From: Octopus vulgaris
Lineage: Eukaryota
Assembly (NCBI GenBank): GCA_951406725.2
Contig: OX597827.1
Location: 17,050,001 to 17,114,000, forward strand
Direction: 5' to 3'
Length of the DNA stretch: 64,000 nucleotides
Each line of letters starts with the position of its first letter. The stretch's first letter is position 1. The position numbers and the translations under genes are program-made. The notes below the pieces were generated by a model, which saw only the letters and a program-made list of their open reading frames with translations, made no database searches and had not been told where the DNA came from. This document shows positions 1 to 43,187 of the stretch, piece by piece.

Positions 1-381
1 TCGTAAGTCCAAAACGTTGCGTTTTCAGAAAACAAAAAATTAGTTTGGCCATTTCAAAGCAAAACCATTGTAGTACACTTTCACAGTTTTTGATATCTTG
101 GCACCTGAAGCCGATAACTACAAAGTAGAGTATATACACACAGAACTTTTGGTGCGTTCAAAAATCACATATCTACTACCCACTTTTCCACGACAAGCTT
201 AGGGCCTAGAATCTTCCAAACTTATACGCAACATGCTACTTAGTCGAATTAGCCCTTCATTACTCCACAGATGTTTTGCCGTCAATGCTGCCCTTCCCCA
301 TTTCACGTATTTCAACTTAACCTCATCATATATACAAACTATGCCGTTTAAATCCCGAGCAACGCCGGATATGTCTGCTAG
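1..381 (+). mobile_element. 3' end of non-autonomous Helitron
   Basis: Subterminal hairpin cccgagcaacgccgg followed by ...ctgCTAG|t at 378-381, the same terminus as the Helitrons at 24739-25131 and 43852-44245. The 5' boundary is not determined. Confidence 0.55.
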
Positions 382-638
382 TGAATAATAAATTAAACTG
401 CACAAGATCAATATCTAGCTACAAGTTAAAAGTAAATGAATAGATTAAAGAAACAAGAGAATGACATCGACTTCAAGCTATGAAATCAGCACAGAAGAAA
501 GAATTAATTATATCTCTTCAGAGTTCACAATTCTTGTGAAGACGGATTGTACCATTCATAGACAGGACTGGATTGGCAGTTGTGTTCATTGGGTTAATAT
601 GCCGACACTTTGATTATAGAAAAATGGGAATAAATGGT

Positions 639-3162: not shown

Positions 3163-4251
3163 TATATATGAACATATGTTATATACATTGATATACATAC
3201 TATTAGATCAATATTGTAGATACAACAAAAAATCTGGTCTTTTGGCCGCCGAAATATTACCATAAACGTCTTAACTGTAGTTACACGATACTCTATAAAT
3301 ACATTTTAATTAAATTTAATGCTAAATAAAAATAGCATAAGTTGAGAAGCTCAGATTTAGAATGCTCATGTATACACAAGCATTCATTACTTCCAAAATC
3401 GAAAGATGATTGATCCTTCGTCTGTCTCGACGATGAATATTTAGTTTCTTTTTTTAATTTTTAATTAGTTTTATTTTAGTTTATTGAATTTCTAATCGTA
3501 AAACCAATGTCTCTGTGGCTTACTACTCGAAAGATAGGTGTACTTTTAGCGCTGAAGTCAAGTCGAATCACTGCCGCACTCTGGCAAGGCTGCGCCGTTT
3601 ATCGTTGAAGAACAAGTGCAATTCGTATAGATGCGTAGATGGAGAAAGATAAAAAGAGAGAGGGGGAGTGAGTAAGTTCTGTCCGAATTTTGAATAAAGA
3701 AAACAAGTGATCAAATGTTATATTTAATTGAAATTTAATCATCAATGTACTTTCCCTGATTTTCTATGACTTCCTTCCATCTATTTTCAAACTTTTTAAT
3801 CCTATCAATGTAAAACACTTTTGATTTCAAAATCAATAAATACTATAAATAGTAAAAAATAATAAAAATGTAATCGAATTGATTTTATTATCTATTTGAA
3901 AATATAGCCATAAAACGCGCGTAGTCTTTTTACTACTATTTACTATTTATTGTACTTTATTGATTTTTAGAATAAGGTTTTTATAGTAAATATTTTCTAT
4001 ATGATGTGAATAACATCTTTCATTACTGAATTGTTTAATAGAGGTTCTCCTCTTTAAATTATATACATATATTATATATTGTGAAATTTGATTTAAAATT
4101 GTTAAATTGAATTTTTCTCTGTAAGTTTTGTAATTATATTCCCTACTATTATATATGTATATATATATATATATTACAGAGATGTACTTGCATAGCAAGT
4201 GACCTGATCTGAGATCGTGTGCTGGAACGAAAACAATTGTAACGTGACGCA

Positions 4252-5521: not shown

Positions 5522-5977
5522 CTCTCTCACATTATATACCAACGCAGAACATCTTTCTTACACGCTAACTGCTTGATCTATTCCTTCAGTCTGAATGCAA
5601 CTTTCAAAATACTTCCTGGAATTGCCTGGGATTATATTTAAGGGGATACAACTTCATGGAAGAACGGACCAACTTCCATACCCTCTGCAACAAAATGAAC
5701 TTTATTCTCCTGTCTTTATTCTTCTATCTACTGTTTTATTGTTATACAGACTGTGAATTCTCTGTCTGGAACTTTCCTGCATACACAATGTATGGGGATG
5801 TTGACCCATCACCTTGGATATCCCAGAAACAGCTGTAAGACATTACTTCTACTTCTCTATCTTTTATGCTCCTTACTCTAATAAAATATTCTAAATGATC
5901 TGAGATAGTCGTCCTGCCTTGGTTTTGTTTCTCTTTTCCTTTAACACACACACACACACAAACACACATATATATAT

Positions 5978-9967: not shown

Positions 9968-10311
9968 ACAGAGATGTACTTGCATAGCAAGTGATTTGAT
10001 CTGAGATCGTGTGCTGAAACGAAAACAATTGCAGCGTGGAAGGTGTTTGTAAGCCATTTAAAAAACAAACAAAAGCCGTTCGATTCGCTTCAACATTTAA
10101 GTTTAATTTGTCAAAATATTTTCGTCGCTTTAAGACCGCGACCTATTCGCTGACAAAAATCCATGCTGCATCTCGGATTTTTGTCAATGAACAGGTCGCG
10201 GGCTTAAAGCGACGAAAATATTTTGACAAATTAAACTTAAATGTTGAAGTGAATCGAACAGCTTTTGTGTGTTTCTTAAATGGCTTGCAAACACCTTCCA
10301 CGCTGCAATTG
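9968..10311. mobile_element. Palindromic Penelope-type element (inverted pLTR-like arms) of the GUGAACA hammerhead family
   Basis: Inverted arms ~10025-10163 and ~10173-10311, homologous to 42192-42520. Each arm has hammerhead topology with a decayed core (10107-10157 -, 10180-10230 +). Confidence 0.75.
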
Positions 10312-10436
10312 GTTCCTGCTACAGTTGTCCCTGAACGAGCACAAATTGAGATTGGTGTCGTGGATATTGAAGGCCGATGTGAAGACGGTAACGATTGTAG
10401 CGATGACTACCAATACTCCTGCTGCTCCTGCTACTG

Positions 10437-12518: not shown

Positions 12519-12557
<39 letters not shown>

Positions 12558-12562
12558 AATGC

Positions 12563-12598
<36 letters not shown>

Positions 12599-12599
<1 letters not shown>

Positions 12600-13640
12600 A
12601 AGTGACTTCAACACAACCAAAGCATTCTATAGGGGTTTAGTGGAGGGGAGGTACGACGACGAGCGCGGGGCGAACCTGGACGTCGACGAGGAGTACCTGA
12701 CCCGCCTGTTCAGGACGACTTTCGGGCCAGGGCCCATGGACAACTTCCAGAGATCCCTGGCCTGGCAGTGCTACCGAGAAGCGCTACCCGTTCGGGATAA
12801 GCTCTACAGACACGGCTCGAGAAACACGGGGCCGACCTGCCCGAGATGCGGTCAGAGCGACGAAACCGTTCTGCACGCACTCGTTCAGTGTCCAACAATT
12901 TCCGACCTGTGGGCTTATGTCGAACAACTGCTGTCACGTGTGGGACGAGTCGGTTTATCAGCTGAGTCTATCGTCAATATTGTCACGCCTCCTTCCTTCA
13001 AACGGGAAGGAAGAGCTATTTTCATCATCCTTGTGGCTATGGCGAAAGAATGTATCTGGTGGACGCGTCTGAAAGGATTGGAGACAAACACTTTCCTCTC
13101 TGGTCAATCTCTCATCAACTTCTTCAAGTACCACTTGAAAAGGAAAGTGAGAGTAGAGAGGCAGGTTTTGTCTAGCGAATGTTTTAAAAAGATGGGTGAA
13201 TGTAGCAAGAATGGCACGTATGAATGACGAAGCCACCTTGAGCATAGTCCTATGAACCCAGAAATCGAAAACAGAGAGTTGCTTATTTGCAAAAAAAAAA
13301 AAAAAAAAGAAATATAAAATGTGACATCATTGACCGAGGTTACCGTGGTCTTTTCCGTAGGCTTTTCTTTGCACGGGTAAACCTCACCTGTCCTCCCCTT
13401 TACACTTCATATTGACATTTCTGTGATAACGATCCCTATTGATCAATTTTTTTTCCTCCCCCCTTTTTTTTAAACCCCCTTTTTTTGTCCTCTTTCTCTC
13501 CTTTTACGATCCCTTTTGATCGAAACTCCCCCTTCCTTTTTTTTTTTTTTTTTTTTTTCTTTCTTAAACCTTCAAAAGAAAAGCTCTACCTTGTAATTTG
13601 TTCTATCTGTGTGCAGCCCTGTGTGGCTAATAAAGAAACA

Positions 13641-21883: not shown

Positions 21884-23165
21884 ACGACGGTAGTTGATGA
21901 CAGACGCGATGTACGCGTTCGCCACCTCCACCCGACCTTTTAGGGAGAGCTTCCTCTCGGCCCATTGCCTGCAGAGAGTGGCCACACTCTACTCGTTATC
22001 TTGTCCCAGTTCTCCGTTTGGAGGTCTGGACCGAACTAGACTCCGGGCAATTTGACCGGCCCGTCCGTCCAGCGTCCCACTACTGAGGCGCTGGTGGACG
22101 GCATGGGCTTGCTTCTGCAGGTGCCCAGTCGCACGCCCACTGACTTTTCTAGGTTGATTTTTGCTCCCGTCACCGCTTCGTAGTCTTGCAGTGTCTCGCC
22201 GACTAGCTCGATGTGCTCGTGGCTAGACACTATGACGGTGACGTCGTCCGCGTATGCGGACACGCTCGTCACGCCCCCCTGTTCTCGCGGGATGCCTCTC
22301 AGCGTCGCCAGCTTCCTCAGTAGTAGCTCGAGAGTCAATACGTACAGAAGCGACGAGAGGGGGCATCCCTGATGGACCGAACGTGCAATGTCGAAAGGTT
22401 TCGATAGATGCCCATTCACGCGAATTACCGAACGGATGCTTCTGTACAAGGCAGCCATCCAGCTGCGGAATATGGGACCGAAACCAGCCGCTATGAGGAC
22501 AGCCTCCAAGTATCGATGGTCTACCCTATTGAAAGCTTTCGATTGATCCAAATTGATCAGGGCCCCTCCCATGCTAGGTTCCTTAACTACCCTGTCTATG
22601 ATGTAGCGCATCAGATGGGGGTTGTCATGGATGCTCCGGCCCGGCACGGCGCAAGTTTGCGCCTTGTCGACCAGTTTGTCGACGACAAGCGCCAACCTCT
22701 TGGCTAACACATTGGCCAAAATTTTCAAGTCTACATTGAGCAGAGTGATGGGCCTAAAGTTATCTATAATATCCCTCTTGTTTGGATCTTTCTTTAGCAG
22801 CGTTACGGCTCCTCGACTCACAAAACCGGGTATGCTTCCGTTCTGCTGCCAGTTGCGGCACACCGCTGCCAAGACGTCTCCAAACAAGTCTGGCATACAA
22901 TTGTAAAGCTCATAGGGCAGACCATCCAAACCCGGCGATTTGTCCCTTGAGCATCCCGCCATCGCATCCCTCACTTCCGCCCCTGTGATGGCACCTTCGC
23001 AGCACTCCGCCTCTCTTGCCGAGAGCCGTGGCAGGCTGTACAGGTAGTCACTGGAGTCCACCCTGCGTTCTCGCTCGCCACTCGTCCCGAACATTCGGGC
23101 AAAATGCCGATGAAACGCCTCGCACATCTTGCTCGGCTCGAGCAATTCGTGCCCTTGTTCATCTA
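21884..23165 (-). mobile_element. Tx1/L1-clade LINE ORF2 reverse transcriptase fragment (ORF 22036-23145)
   Basis: KSPGLDGLPYELY, NFRPITLLNVDLKILA, LDQSKAFNRVDH, VHQGCPLSSLLY, AYADDVT, AKINLEKS: the non-LTR RT domain of L1/Tx1 type. Confidence 0.92.
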
Positions 23166-23925
23166 CCGTTGGCGGCGGCGGTGGTGGCGGTGGTGACGGT
23201 GGTGGTAGTGGTAGTAGCGGTGGTGATGGTGGTAGCGGTGGTGATAGTGGTGGTTAGTGGTGGTGGCAGCGGTGGTGGTGGGGTGGTAGTGGTGGTGGTA
23301 GCGGTCGTGAAGGTGGTGGTTAGTGGTGGTGGCAGCGGTGGTGATGGTGGTGGTAGTGGTGGTGGCAGCGGTGGTGATGGTGGTGGTAGTGGTGGTGGTA
23401 GCGGTGGTGATGGTGGTGGTTAGTGGTGGTGGCAGCGGTGGTGGTGGTGGTGGTGGTGGTGATGTTTGTAGCAGAGTTCTTTCGATTCAGAGTAGTTGAC
23501 TGTGAAGCTGTCGTCTGGGTGCTTCCAATTTTTTCGTGTGTCGGTGGCGGTGGCGGTGTTGGCGTTCATGCTCACACCTGCACCTGTGTTGCTTTTCCCC
23601 CTCCTTCCCTACCCCCCCCCAGGTGAAGCTGTGGGGAAGGCAGGGTAAGGAAATCAACGTCGTAAGCGTTGTCAAGGAGACCAGCGTTCTTTTCGACAAT
23701 GACTTCATGGGTTGAAGACGCCATCCTCAAAACAGAAATGGCCAGGAAAGCCGAAAACAATTTTACAAAATCGGGAAACACGCCACACAGGGCAGGTTTC
23801 CCGTGCAAAGAATTTGCTCAACCGAATGTATTAGTCATTGCTAATAAATATAATACAATACACAACTTTTGAAGGCAATAAAGAGCAAACTTACTACGAG
23901 CCGATGTGACTATCGTCCTTCCATT
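23166..23925 (-). other. Probable 5' UTR and ORF1 N-terminus of the same Tx1 element (with T/P-rich (ACC)n low complexity)
   Basis: GC-richer segment directly upstream of the RT fragment with ATG MASSTHEVIVEKNAGLLDNAYDVDF. The assignment is inferred from position. Confidence 0.35.
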
Positions 23926-29152: not shown

Positions 29153-29961
29153 GGAACTTTTCGGTTTGAACGGCAGTTTTTTTCTAGCGGTGTCATATGA
29201 AATTGTCACCCATAATTATGACCCTAGTATCGATCTATTGCATTTCAATCAGTTTTAGGGTTAGGGGTGGGGGAAGGGTATCAGAAACCTGGACGTTATC
29301 AAACAAGCTTGAGAGGCGGTTGGATGGAACCTACACTCGCCTCCTTATGAGAGCTCAAAATCTCTCGTGGAAGTATCATCCAACCAAAATGCAAATATAT
29401 GGGAAACTACCACCTGTGTCATCTCTTGTGAAAGGTAGGAGAGTCCAGTTTGCTAGACATTGTTGTAGAGCTGAAAACGAGGCAATTTCTACTCTTCTCC
29501 TCTGGAAGCCATCTACTCGCAATACCAGAGGGCGCACACTCTCCTACCCTGATGTAATCTCCAGGGATACAGGCATCCAGCAACAGGACCTCCGTAATGC
29601 TATGATGGACCGTGAAGTCTGGCGTAGCATGGTAAATTCCATTGTCTCGACCACGGTTGAACAATGATGATGATGATGATCTTTTTTCTTCACAAATGTA
29701 AATATACCCAATCTGTTTCTTAAACGAGGAACATATTCATATGGCACAGAATGCTTTTTAACTCAGTAGACGTCACTGATTGGTTGAAATTGCAGAAATT
29801 GAAGAAAAACAACAACAAATATCTTACAAACTATAGAATTTTCTCAATAAAGCCAAGAGAAAAAGATGTTTTATGAACACATTCTACCAGTATACGAAGA
29901 TAAAATTTATTTAGTTACCTAGAAATTATGTTAAAAACTGCCGTTCAAACCGAAAGGATCC
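29153..29961. mobile_element. MITE (same family as 8236-8659, opposite orientation) carrying an RTE insertion
   Basis: TIRs ggaacttttcggtttgaacggcagttttt ... aaaaactgccgttcaaaccgaaaggatcc. Confidence 0.85.
29283..29678 (+). mobile_element. RTE-like LINE 3' fragment (ORF2 C-terminus with (TGA)n tail)
   Basis: ETWTLSNKLERRLDGTYTRLLMRAQNLSWK..HPT...RRVQFARHCCRA...RGR...AMMDREVWRS, a typical RTE-type C-terminus. Tail tgatgatga. Confidence 0.85.
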
Positions 29962-39230: not shown

Positions 39231-39664
39231 CATATCAAAGAGTAGTTCCATATGTGTATCAATCCCTGCAATACACCCTACTGTAGCATAACATATGATA
39301 TCCAAATAACGACAGAAGAGGTTTTAAATGCACGTTACGAAGTCTTCCCTCGAATGATTCTAAATTATATATATCCAAGTTTAGGGAGTGGTGTAGATAT
39401 AATCCAAGCAACATATGTTTCATAGTTAATAGAACCTCTAAAGTAGTAATCAAAATCGAATCTCCAGCGGGTCAACATCGGTTCCCATGACGACAGTGTT
39501 GATTTATTTTGATCTGATGAGTCACTAGCTGATTACCCTTCGTTTGGATATTTACTACTTCCAAGATTCTGTTAACTATGAAACGTATGTAGCCAGCATG
39601 ACACGTATTTCCCCCATGATTTCCATGTTCAGAGAAGTCAAGAGGGAAATAGATTTAACCTTAC

Positions 39665-40067
39665 ATTCATCATCATTGTTTGACACGTGGTCGAGATAAT
39701 GGAATTTACTATGTTACGACAGACTTCACGGTCCATCATAGCATTATGGAGGTCCTGTTTTTGGATGCCTGTATTCCTGGAGATTACATCAGGGTAGGAG
39801 AGTGTGCGCCCTCTGGTATCACGAGCAGATGGCTTCCAGAGGAGAAGAGCAGAAATTACCTCGTTTTCAGCTCTACAACAACGTCCAGCAAACTGGACTC
39901 TTCTACCTTTCACAAGAGATGATACAGGTGGTAATTTCCCATATATTTGTACTTTGGTTGGATGACACTTCCATGAGAGATTTTGAGCTCTCATAAGGAG
40001 GAGGGACGTTATCAAAGAAGCTTGAGAAGCGGTTGGATGGAACTTACACTCGCCTCCTTATGAGAGC
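39665..40067 (-). mobile_element. RTE-like LINE 3' fragment with 5' inversion
   Basis: 39665-40002 (-) is homologous to 29340-29678, and 40004-40067 (+) is homologous to 29291-29354. Confidence 0.85.
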
Positions 40068-41992: not shown

Positions 41993-42191
41993 CAAAGGGC
42001 ATACTAAGAATGTCTACCTGCTTGAAGTAACAGTCAAAACTCTTATTAAATCGGCAAAAATACACTGATGAAAACTACAGAAATCAAGCGAAGGCAAAAT
42101 CAAGTTAAGATAATCTATTAACATACATTTAAGTATTTGGACTCATGCGGACCGGTTTCTGCATTGATAAAATAAAACCTTATATATATAT

Positions 42192-42520
42192 AAACAATTG
42201 CAGCGTGGAAGGTGTTTGCAAGCCATTTAAGAAACACACAAAAGCCGTTCGATTCACTTCAACATTTAAGTTTAATTTGTCAAAATATTTTCGTCGCTAA
42301 AATCCGCGACCTGTTCACTGACAAGAATCCGTGCTGTCAGTGAACAGGTCGCGGATTTTAGCGACGAAAATATTTTGACAAATTAAACTTAAATGTTGAA
42401 GTGAATCGAACGGCTTTTGTGTGTTTCTTAAATGGCTTACAAACACCTTCCACGCTGCAATTGTTTTCGTTCCAGCACACGATCTCAGATCAAATCACTT
42501 GCTATGCGAGTACATCTCCT
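42192..42520. mobile_element. Palindromic Penelope-type element with two inverted GUGAACA hammerhead folds
   Basis: Near-perfect inverted arms around ~42330, flanked by (TA)n on both sides. Confidence 0.8.
42335..42380 (+). ncRNA. Putative minimal type I hammerhead ribozyme with a G3:C8-swapped core (mirror copy 42277-42324 on -)
   Basis: tgtca-GTGAACA-g-gtcgc(ggatttta)gcgac-GAAA-atat-TT-tgaca: stem I, core, stem II, GAAA, palindromic loop III and UH all in hammerhead register. Confidence 0.65.
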
Positions 42521-42526
42521 TATATG

Positions 42527-42585
<59 letters not shown>

Positions 42586-42714
42586 GGTCCCGGGTTGAGT
42601 CGGGGTTAACCACAGTAAATAAGGTACTCAATACATAGCAGAGTAAATTAATTTATTTTATAGAAGGAGCTTCTACAGGACTAGAACTGTTTCATTCAAA
42701 AGAAATCATCAGGA

Positions 42715-42765
42715 AGCTTCCTGATGATTTCTTTTGAATGAAACAGTTCTAGTCCTGTAGAAGCT
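42715..42765 (+). ncRNA. Type I hammerhead ribozyme with canonical core (mirror copy 42668-42718 on -)
   Basis: agcttc-CTGATGA-tttcttttgaat-GAAA-cag(ttctagtc)ctg-TA-gaagct inside a perfect palindrome at 42651-42782. Confidence 0.75.
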
Positions 42766-43187
42766 CCTTCTATAAAATAAATATATATATATTTATATAT
42801 TTATATATATACATATATATACATATATATATAAAGGTTATTAACAATGCTACAGAAGTTACTCGTGAGTTTCGTATTTCGTGCATAAAATTTTATAGAT
42901 TCGTAGAAGTTTTATACATAGAGTTGATTTGGAATATTTTGCGTGGTCGATGGGTGGAATTGTGTAGTTTATGCGACAAGCATACTTAGTTCTGCTAAAT
43001 TCTATGCCATTAAATGTATGCATGTACACCTAAATGCTTAACTCTCAGGCGTCGCTGTGCAGGAAGAAGTTCGCTTTCAAACCACACGATTCTTTGTTCA
43101 GTCCCACTGTGTATCATCTTGGGGAGCTGTTCTTCATTACAGCCCATGGTTGGCCAAGGTCTTTCGAGCGGATTAGGTAGAAAGAAA

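Follow-up and report, generated by a model that had tools for sequence, protein, structure and literature searches.

A natural G3:C8 hammerhead motif in the pseudo-LTRs of a Penelope-like element family of Octopus vulgaris

Descriptors of the hammerhead ribozyme treat C3 and G8 of its core as invariant, and the exchange of this tertiary pair for G3:C8 is its classic laboratory test. Minimal hammerheads in the pseudo-long terminal repeats (pLTRs) of Penelope-like elements (PLEs) have been reported with C3:G8 and with U3:A8 (Cervera and De la Pena 2014, PMC4209133), and an extra base after A9, a G10.1-C11.1 pair and a palindrome are their marks (PMC4209133). Natural U3:A8 hammerheads have been published (Perreault et al. 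2011, PMC3088659; Schistosoma PLEs, PMC4209133), and an optional tail and an inverted second arm are described for PLEs (PMC8557442). In the lizard PLE PAc the C3G/G8C double mutant partly restores cleavage, and the hammerhead needs the PLE protein (PMC11167929). Here, we describe a hammerhead motif with G3:C8 in a 64,000-nucleotide stretch of the Octopus vulgaris genome (GenBank assembly GCA_951406725.2, contig OX597827.1, positions 17,050,001 to 17,114,000 of the forward strand; the window below). The motif lies in the pLTR of a PLE family, named family A, it is homologous to canonical C3:G8 hammerhead motifs of sister families, and its G3:C8 pair is fixed in the family.

All pieces of the motif quoted in a preliminary description of the window were located on both strands at 42278-42380. 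Its parts, read from the sequence, and the insertion that holds them are as follows (RT stands for reverse transcriptase and ORF for open reading frame; L numbers denote genomic loci).

42335..42380, plus strand: G3:C8 minimal type I hammerhead motif, parts and predicted cut given singly below
42335-42339 with 42376-42380, plus strand: stem I
42340-42346, plus strand: core GTGAACA (G3-U4-G5-A6-A7-C8-A9)
42347, plus strand: extra G between position 9 and 10.1, the same G as in the canonical sisters
42348-42352 with 42361-42365, plus strand: stem II
42366-42369, plus strand: GAAA
42369-42374, plus strand: palindrome AATATT
42375, plus strand: U17, with the predicted cut between 42375 and 42376
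42278..42323, minus strand: second G3:C8 motif, in the inverted arm, from sequence comparison
42335..42519, plus strand: long arm, a 5′-truncated pLTR plus tail of family A, running on into the RT+GIY-YIG ORF in L158, L267 and L268
42192..42334, minus strand: short inverted arm without tail (PLE 5′ inversion), the same long+short layout being found at L003/L004, L020/L021 and L023/L024
42432..42519, plus strand: ORF start of the element, first ~29 codons (MAYKHLPRCNC...), ending at the long 3′ end, with the same start in L267

Of the palindromic element placed at 42277-42380 in the preliminary description, the occurrence on both strands and the inverted layout stand, but the inverted pair really spans 42192-42519 and is the usual PLE 5′ inversion with unequal arms, not a designed palindrome. 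A second inverted pair lies at 9971-10314, and at both sites the long arm reaches +185 and the short arm +132. The motif has stems I and II with G10.1-C11.1, the bases U4, G5, A6, A9, G12, A13, A14, A15.1, U16.1 and H17 of the minimal type I hammerhead, the extra base between 9 and 10.1 and a palindromic 15-16 segment. A strict type I descriptor gave 2 matches in the window and none in any of 40 block-shuffled windows. The literal C3 and G8 of the hammerhead consensus are replaced in family A, and at the sequence level position 3:8 is a Watson-Crick pair both here (G3:C8) and in the sisters (C3:G8). When 42185-42520 is transcribed in place, the predicted fold is a single hairpin of -236 kcal/mol in which both motifs are buried, and the locus itself is therefore unlikely to cut. 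On this model 42192-42519 would be a dead insertion, and the question of activity concerns the family and not the locus.

The proposed link to Penelope-like elements was borne out by the position of the motif beside an RT+GIY-YIG ORF. Most family A copies are 140-210 nt long with a fairly sharp 5′ end and begin near ATGCAGCACGG, and some extend upstream. A search with this upstream part gave 40 scored matches out of 493 candidates, many running into RT and GIY-YIG coding sequence. At L264 a 5′-truncated open frame of 1,025 codons is followed by ~1 kb of 3′ untranslated region (UTR) and then by the G3:C8 motif, and at L267 (partial) and L268 the motif stands immediately 5′ of the ORF, whose start MAYKHLPRCNC corresponds to the ATG at 42432 of the window. 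Within the 200-aa open frame of L267, residues 71-200 match the start of the L264 protein, a 997-aa RT+GIY-YIG stretch, at 100% identity. The L264 protein holds a YVDD motif and a GIY-YIG domain (PF01541, residues 887-977 of 997, 25.5 bits vs the Pfam cut-off of 22.6); the Pfam RVT_1 model gave no match on it, and it is 21% identical (E=1e-9) to a PLE protein that RVT_1 does match. The best named protein match of the element ORF is an RT domain-containing protein of Octopus vulgaris. The pLTR is found on both sides of the ORF, upstream in L267/L268 and downstream in L264, these being different copies of family A, and no single full-length intact copy was present among the loci examined. The 3′ ends of 122 copies include 43 at +130-144 and 67 at +185-194, and inverted long+short pairs recur in the genome. 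The RT ORF, C-terminal GIY-YIG, flanking pLTRs and the tail, 5′ truncation and inverted arm are those of an endonuclease-containing (EN+) PLE, and the placement of the motif beside this ORF shows that the source element is Penelope-like. The flanks of 30 loci, judged without a tandem-repeat program, held solo copies or inverted pairs and not the head-to-tail tandem hammerhead monomers of non-LTR retrozymes.

Some further properties of the element were observed. By eye, the RT3-RT4 stretch of L264 (2171-5161, minus strand) exceeds that of the Nematis, Neptune and Poseidon rows by ~50 residues and recalls the Naiads insertion in the fingers, though the endonuclease is C-terminal. Relatives occur at 45-55% identity, one of them from a sea cucumber. 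A branch-point-like CTAAC, a pyrimidine run and an AG stand just before the usual 5′ end (L268:296-325; L028, L120, L146, L164, L224-L253) and, judged by sequence, may mark the 3′ splice site of an intron like that of Drosophila Penelope. Short copies often begin with GAG ahead of ATGCAGC.

The claim that the motif is multicopy was confirmed in the 2.8-Gb genome by a pattern that left positions 3, 7 and 8 free, which gave 6,354 matches against 0 for the reversed control. The family copy numbers are lower bounds because the pattern fits only 1 of the 4 window copies. G3:C8 is carried by 5,764-5,829 of the 6,354 matches (91-92%) and by 95 of the first 100 listed; G3 with a base other than C at 8 accounts for 361 matches, a base other than G at 3 with C8 for 164, and both positions are changed in at most 65 (looser flanks). 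The GTGAACA core is thus kept in the genomic copies and the swap belongs to the family, as had been supposed. Among 33 rows selected by the 3′UTR, independently of the core, 26 have GTGAACA, 1 is decayed and 6 could not be parsed (one locus is counted twice), and the 15 copies parsed out of 30 selected by the tail peptide comprise 12 GTGAACA, 1 GCGAACA and 2 GTGAAGA. The GTGAACAG core was also found in loose ends of contigs from four public runs labelled as four organisms, at the same two 3′ places as in genomic copies; this material is contigs, from which RNA ends cannot be read, and its status as RNA is a guess.

Homology to hammerheads is demonstrated by the sister families, which also uphold the earlier statement that the only two core changes are the compensatory 3:8 pair. 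In a search with looser flanks all 12 C3:G8 hits fell in sister families and none in family A, and all share the TGTCA and GGTCGC flanks. In L274 and L278 TGTCA CTGAAGA GGTCGC stands against TGTCA GTGAACA GGTCGC of family A, and since only positions 3 and 8 differ among these 18 bases the alignment register is fixed. One such relative, whose 1,312-aa frames are intact, shows 55% identity to family A in the RT-EN region and is arranged in the same way, and in its copy L265 both pLTRs carry the motif. A check of stem covariation over nine natural motifs showed that 91% of pair cells hold (100% in stem II, against 19-60% in slid controls), with double changes in stem I, in stem II and at 3:8; the shuffle control of the covariation score was modest (6/500) and kinship was ignored. 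The expectation that CUGANGA-based searches would miss the family through the swap holds in part. Rfam gave no hammerhead among 150 listed of 352 window matches, nor on 42326-42520, nor on 8 loci that included 4/4 canonical C3:G8 sisters. The Rfam result is hence uninformative, and the swap is not the sole reason that searches miss the motif.

Related families were observed beside these. The sister family of L265 (1290-1350 and 5888-5948, minus strand) and L266 combines intact 1,310-1,312-aa frames, about a dozen of which were listed, with C3:G8 and a C in place of A9, and has an Asn-rich ORF insert of ~250 residues. Older sister families (L111-L140, L171-L200, L272-L284; 18,010 first-look candidates) share the stems and the inverted layout and have a U3:G8 or C3:G8 core. 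The N-terminal peptide of a sister family, used as query against proteins, gave no match. In L051 (2041-2101, plus strand, and 323-383, minus strand) an A3:U8 hammerhead-like motif (ATGAATA) with a short stem II forms an inverted duplicate ~260 nt past the stop of another GIY-YIG ORF, and from its letters it would be a fourth Watson-Crick 3:8 pair in this genome, known at one locus. An abundant PLE family with many identical 781-aa RT+GIY-YIG frames (L041:853-913, minus strand, and many of L036-L078) carries a U3:A8 motif at its 3′ end. It was rejected as partner of the G3:C8 motif, as its loci lack a match to that motif and have their own. L059 was rejected as a second family sharing the tail, being a truncated family A copy that replaces ~55 nt of a miniature inverted-repeat transposable element (MITE) without target-site duplication. 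The host belongs to a MITE-like family of ~390 nt with short terminal inverted repeats (L059:940-1400, L081-L110; 2,557 candidates).

Family A has left other traces in the window.

9971..10174, minus strand: second insertion, long arm, decayed core GCGAATA (stem I from 10155)
10175..10314, plus strand: second insertion, short inverted arm, decayed core ATGAACA (10187-10193)
4179..4246, minus strand: tail-only fragment, 93% identity
60915..60985, plus strand: old tail-only fragment, 80% identity

The two decayed copies agree with those pointed out at 10107-10230, including the differences listed for loop II. Downstream of the main insertion, after a (TA)n run, a short repeat with an internal inverted repeat occupies 42579-42770, and the same repeat comes after the family A copy in L158. 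LINE-type RT-like fragments, recognized by eye and unrelated to the motif, lie at 22036-23253 (minus), 12523-13227 (plus), 29188-29667 (plus) and 39638-40057 (minus).

The explanation that we favour, and hold to be rather probable, is a PLE pLTR hammerhead with fixed G3:C8 that likely cleaves itself slowly as a predicted dimer, probably helped by the protein of the element. We infer the dimer folding, the path through G3:G8 and the cleavage itself. Reverse transcription would start within the first ~95 nt of the ORF, giving the two 3′ ends, and RT would copy through the uncut hammerhead and then stop early. The two hammerheads of a pLTR-ORF-pLTR transcript would pair via their AAUAUU palindromes, and cleavage would trim a minority of tandem transcripts while insertion, as for PAc, would do without it. 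The core may have passed from C3:G8 or U3:G8 through a mismatched G3:G8 to G3:C8, in which the Watson-Crick tertiary pair is restored, and we propose that having U, rather than C, at position 17 makes G3:C8 tolerable. On a bolder version, a hammerhead family both natural and active with G3:C8 would be seen here for the first time, and the PLEs of this genome would sample C:G, U:A, G:C and, at one locus, A:U at 3:8, with the G3:G8 intermediate kept and U17 allowing the swap; to this we give something short of an even chance.

Two lines of evidence bear on activity in favour of this explanation. Between old and young subfamilies (121 copies) 0/9 core, 0/10 stem II and 0/4 helix III columns vary, and 1/14 stem I columns varies while keeping a U-G pair, compared with 10/70 unpaired non-coding columns (p=0.014, or 0.093 with wobble counted). 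Furthermore, copies interrupted immediately upstream of the spacer were collected, for the young subfamily only, with a pattern that had 324 matches against 4 in the control. Hand-sorting of the first 100 left ~38 5′ junctions, the rest being dropped as point, indel or internal-deletion variants. In 13 of these 38 the junction coincides with the predicted cut or precedes it by one base (p=5e-4; 10 by a stricter count, p=0.016), a weak clustering of 5′ junctions at that site.

Other observations weigh against this explanation. The constraint test carries a bias, since the pattern used to pick most old copies fixes the motif's 5′ half, and template switching at the inverted repeat of stem I could be the source of the junction excess. 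Thousands of copies span the cut site uncut, compared with ~40 (extrapolated) that start there, and uncut RNA is therefore the usual template. The mismatched G3:G8 makes up 39 of the first 100 listed of the 361 position-8 variants, 4.6-fold over the strand-symmetric expectation; among those listed, G8 outnumbers A8 by 39 to 19, whereas the mirror-image comparison at position 3 gives 12 to 27 (p=8e-4). G3:G8 copies are scattered over the tree (14 changes), and their excess and scatter imply that the broken pair could spread or recurs often. The young subfamily contributes 1/20 G3:G8 copies vs 16/29 G3:C8 copies, and G8 is present in 2/15 tail-selected young copies. The divergence of old G3:G8 copies (0.040) is practically that of old G3:C8 copies (0.039), so that the order of changes does not follow from it, nor is the order at 3 and 8 resolved by a tree of 70 copies in which 2/67 branches are starred. 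Also, the sister family whose 1,312-aa frames are intact has C in place of A9. In the predicted fold G3 forms a wobble with U17 (p=0.67) and thereby lengthens stem I, the probability rising to 0.98 with C17 and falling to 0 with C3, and this predicted pairing fits a remark, with data not shown there, that C17 leaves G3-C8 less active than G17 does (PMC3884650). The double-hammerhead fold is predicted at -28.8 kcal/mol, above both a pair of monomers (-30.8) and the best dimer (-32.7). Finally, hammerhead mutants are without effect on insertion of the lizard PLE (PMC11167929). Several of these results weaken a strict need for catalysis and suggest that cleavage is slow or dispensable.

The same observations bring forward the strongest rival, a hammerhead relic without a useful cutting rate whose stems are kept as RNA structure, for instance for protein binding or RT, and whose G3:C8 drifted along with a successful master element. 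The surplus of G3:G8, A9C in an intact family, the predicted G3-U17 trap and the uncut template all speak for it, as do the commonness of U3:G8 in an older sister family and, in the lizard PLE, the dispensable hammerhead together with the lack of RNA ends at the cut site (PMC11167929). However, both transversions struck the same tertiary pair, and the nine remaining core bases are invariant between subfamilies. Selection on an active fold fits this better than drift does, and the junction excess at the cut site also weighs against a relic. We regard the relic as a serious but somewhat doubtful account.

That the motif is an accidental hammerhead likeness in an independent short element (a SINE, a MITE or a retrozyme-like repeat) is very improbable. 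The 140-210 nt size and fairly sharp 5′ end of most copies, the long inverted repeat made by the arms and the silence of Rfam could suggest it; but longer copies run upstream into the 3′UTR and RT+GIY-YIG ORF and downstream into the ORF start, the arms are unequal with variable spacers, unlike terminal inverted repeats, and Rfam is equally silent on the canonical sisters. The placement around the ORF largely refutes this reading. Chance hammerhead likeness within a PLE pLTR, for which the shortness of the motif, its two off-consensus core positions and modest fold z-scores (-1.9 to -3.1) could be cited, is barely credible, being refuted by the canonical core between identical flanks in the sister families and by the absence of descriptor matches from all 40 shuffled windows.

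In the literature searched the G3:C8 swap is found only as a laboratory mutant, and natural variation at 3:8, as U3:A8, is already known. No natural G3:C8 hammerhead was found there, though Lunse et al. 2017 and Przybilski and Hammann 2007 lay outside the search and may hold an example, nor was any report of an octopus hammerhead; the passages searched in a 2026 O. vulgaris repeat annotation leave ribozymes unmentioned (PMC13282606). The 56-motif supplement of PMC4209133, searched by core word, has CUGA and UUGA cores and no GUGA core. With a family of ~6,000 copies in which the swap is fixed, nature has in effect performed the laboratory G3:C8 experiment, and PLEs called hammerhead-free by CUGANGA-based descriptors (PMC8557442) need re-inspection. 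With canonical, wobble, mismatched and A9C relatives and near-intact ORFs in one genome, the need of PLEs for hammerhead cleavage becomes testable, as does the question whether the PLE protein rescues weak cores.

Compared with the minimal hammerheads of other PLEs, the motif shares the pLTR site, short stem I, extra base between 9 and 10.1, G10.1-C11.1, palindromic 15-16 segment and the occurrence mostly as solo or opposite-strand pairs, and differs in its G:C at 3:8 and in the extra base, which is G here and H in their consensus (PMC4209133). Like the natural U3:A8 hammerheads, it is a case of natural covariation at the 3:8 tertiary pair, and U3:A8 itself occurs in another PLE family of this genome. 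U3:A8, however, keeps pyrimidine-3/purine-8 and can be reached through the wobble intermediate U3:G8, whereas G3:C8 needs two transversions and a mismatched intermediate. In the family A protein a short CxxxC/CxxC linker precedes GIY-YIG, and the protein falls outside the Penelope/Poseidon type. It resembles the Nematis-type EN+ PLEs in the C-terminal GIY-YIG and short Cys linker (by eye against the supplement alignment; Craig et al. 2021, PMC8557442), and the element does so in its tandem/inverted insertions, tail and (TA)n bias; set against Nematis by alignment, it differs in the longer RT3-RT4 (~50 residues, by eye) and an ORF of ~1,070 aa (PMC8557442). With the Poseidon element PAc of Anolis family A shares a hammerhead near the ORF start and AT-rich targets (Frangieh et al. 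2024, PMC11167929), and its two 3′-end groups match the pair of RT start sites within the ORF by which the tail of PAc is defined (PMC11167929). The C3G/G8C form of PAc is a partly active laboratory mutant (PMC11167929), whereas in the octopus the swap is the natural state of a family.
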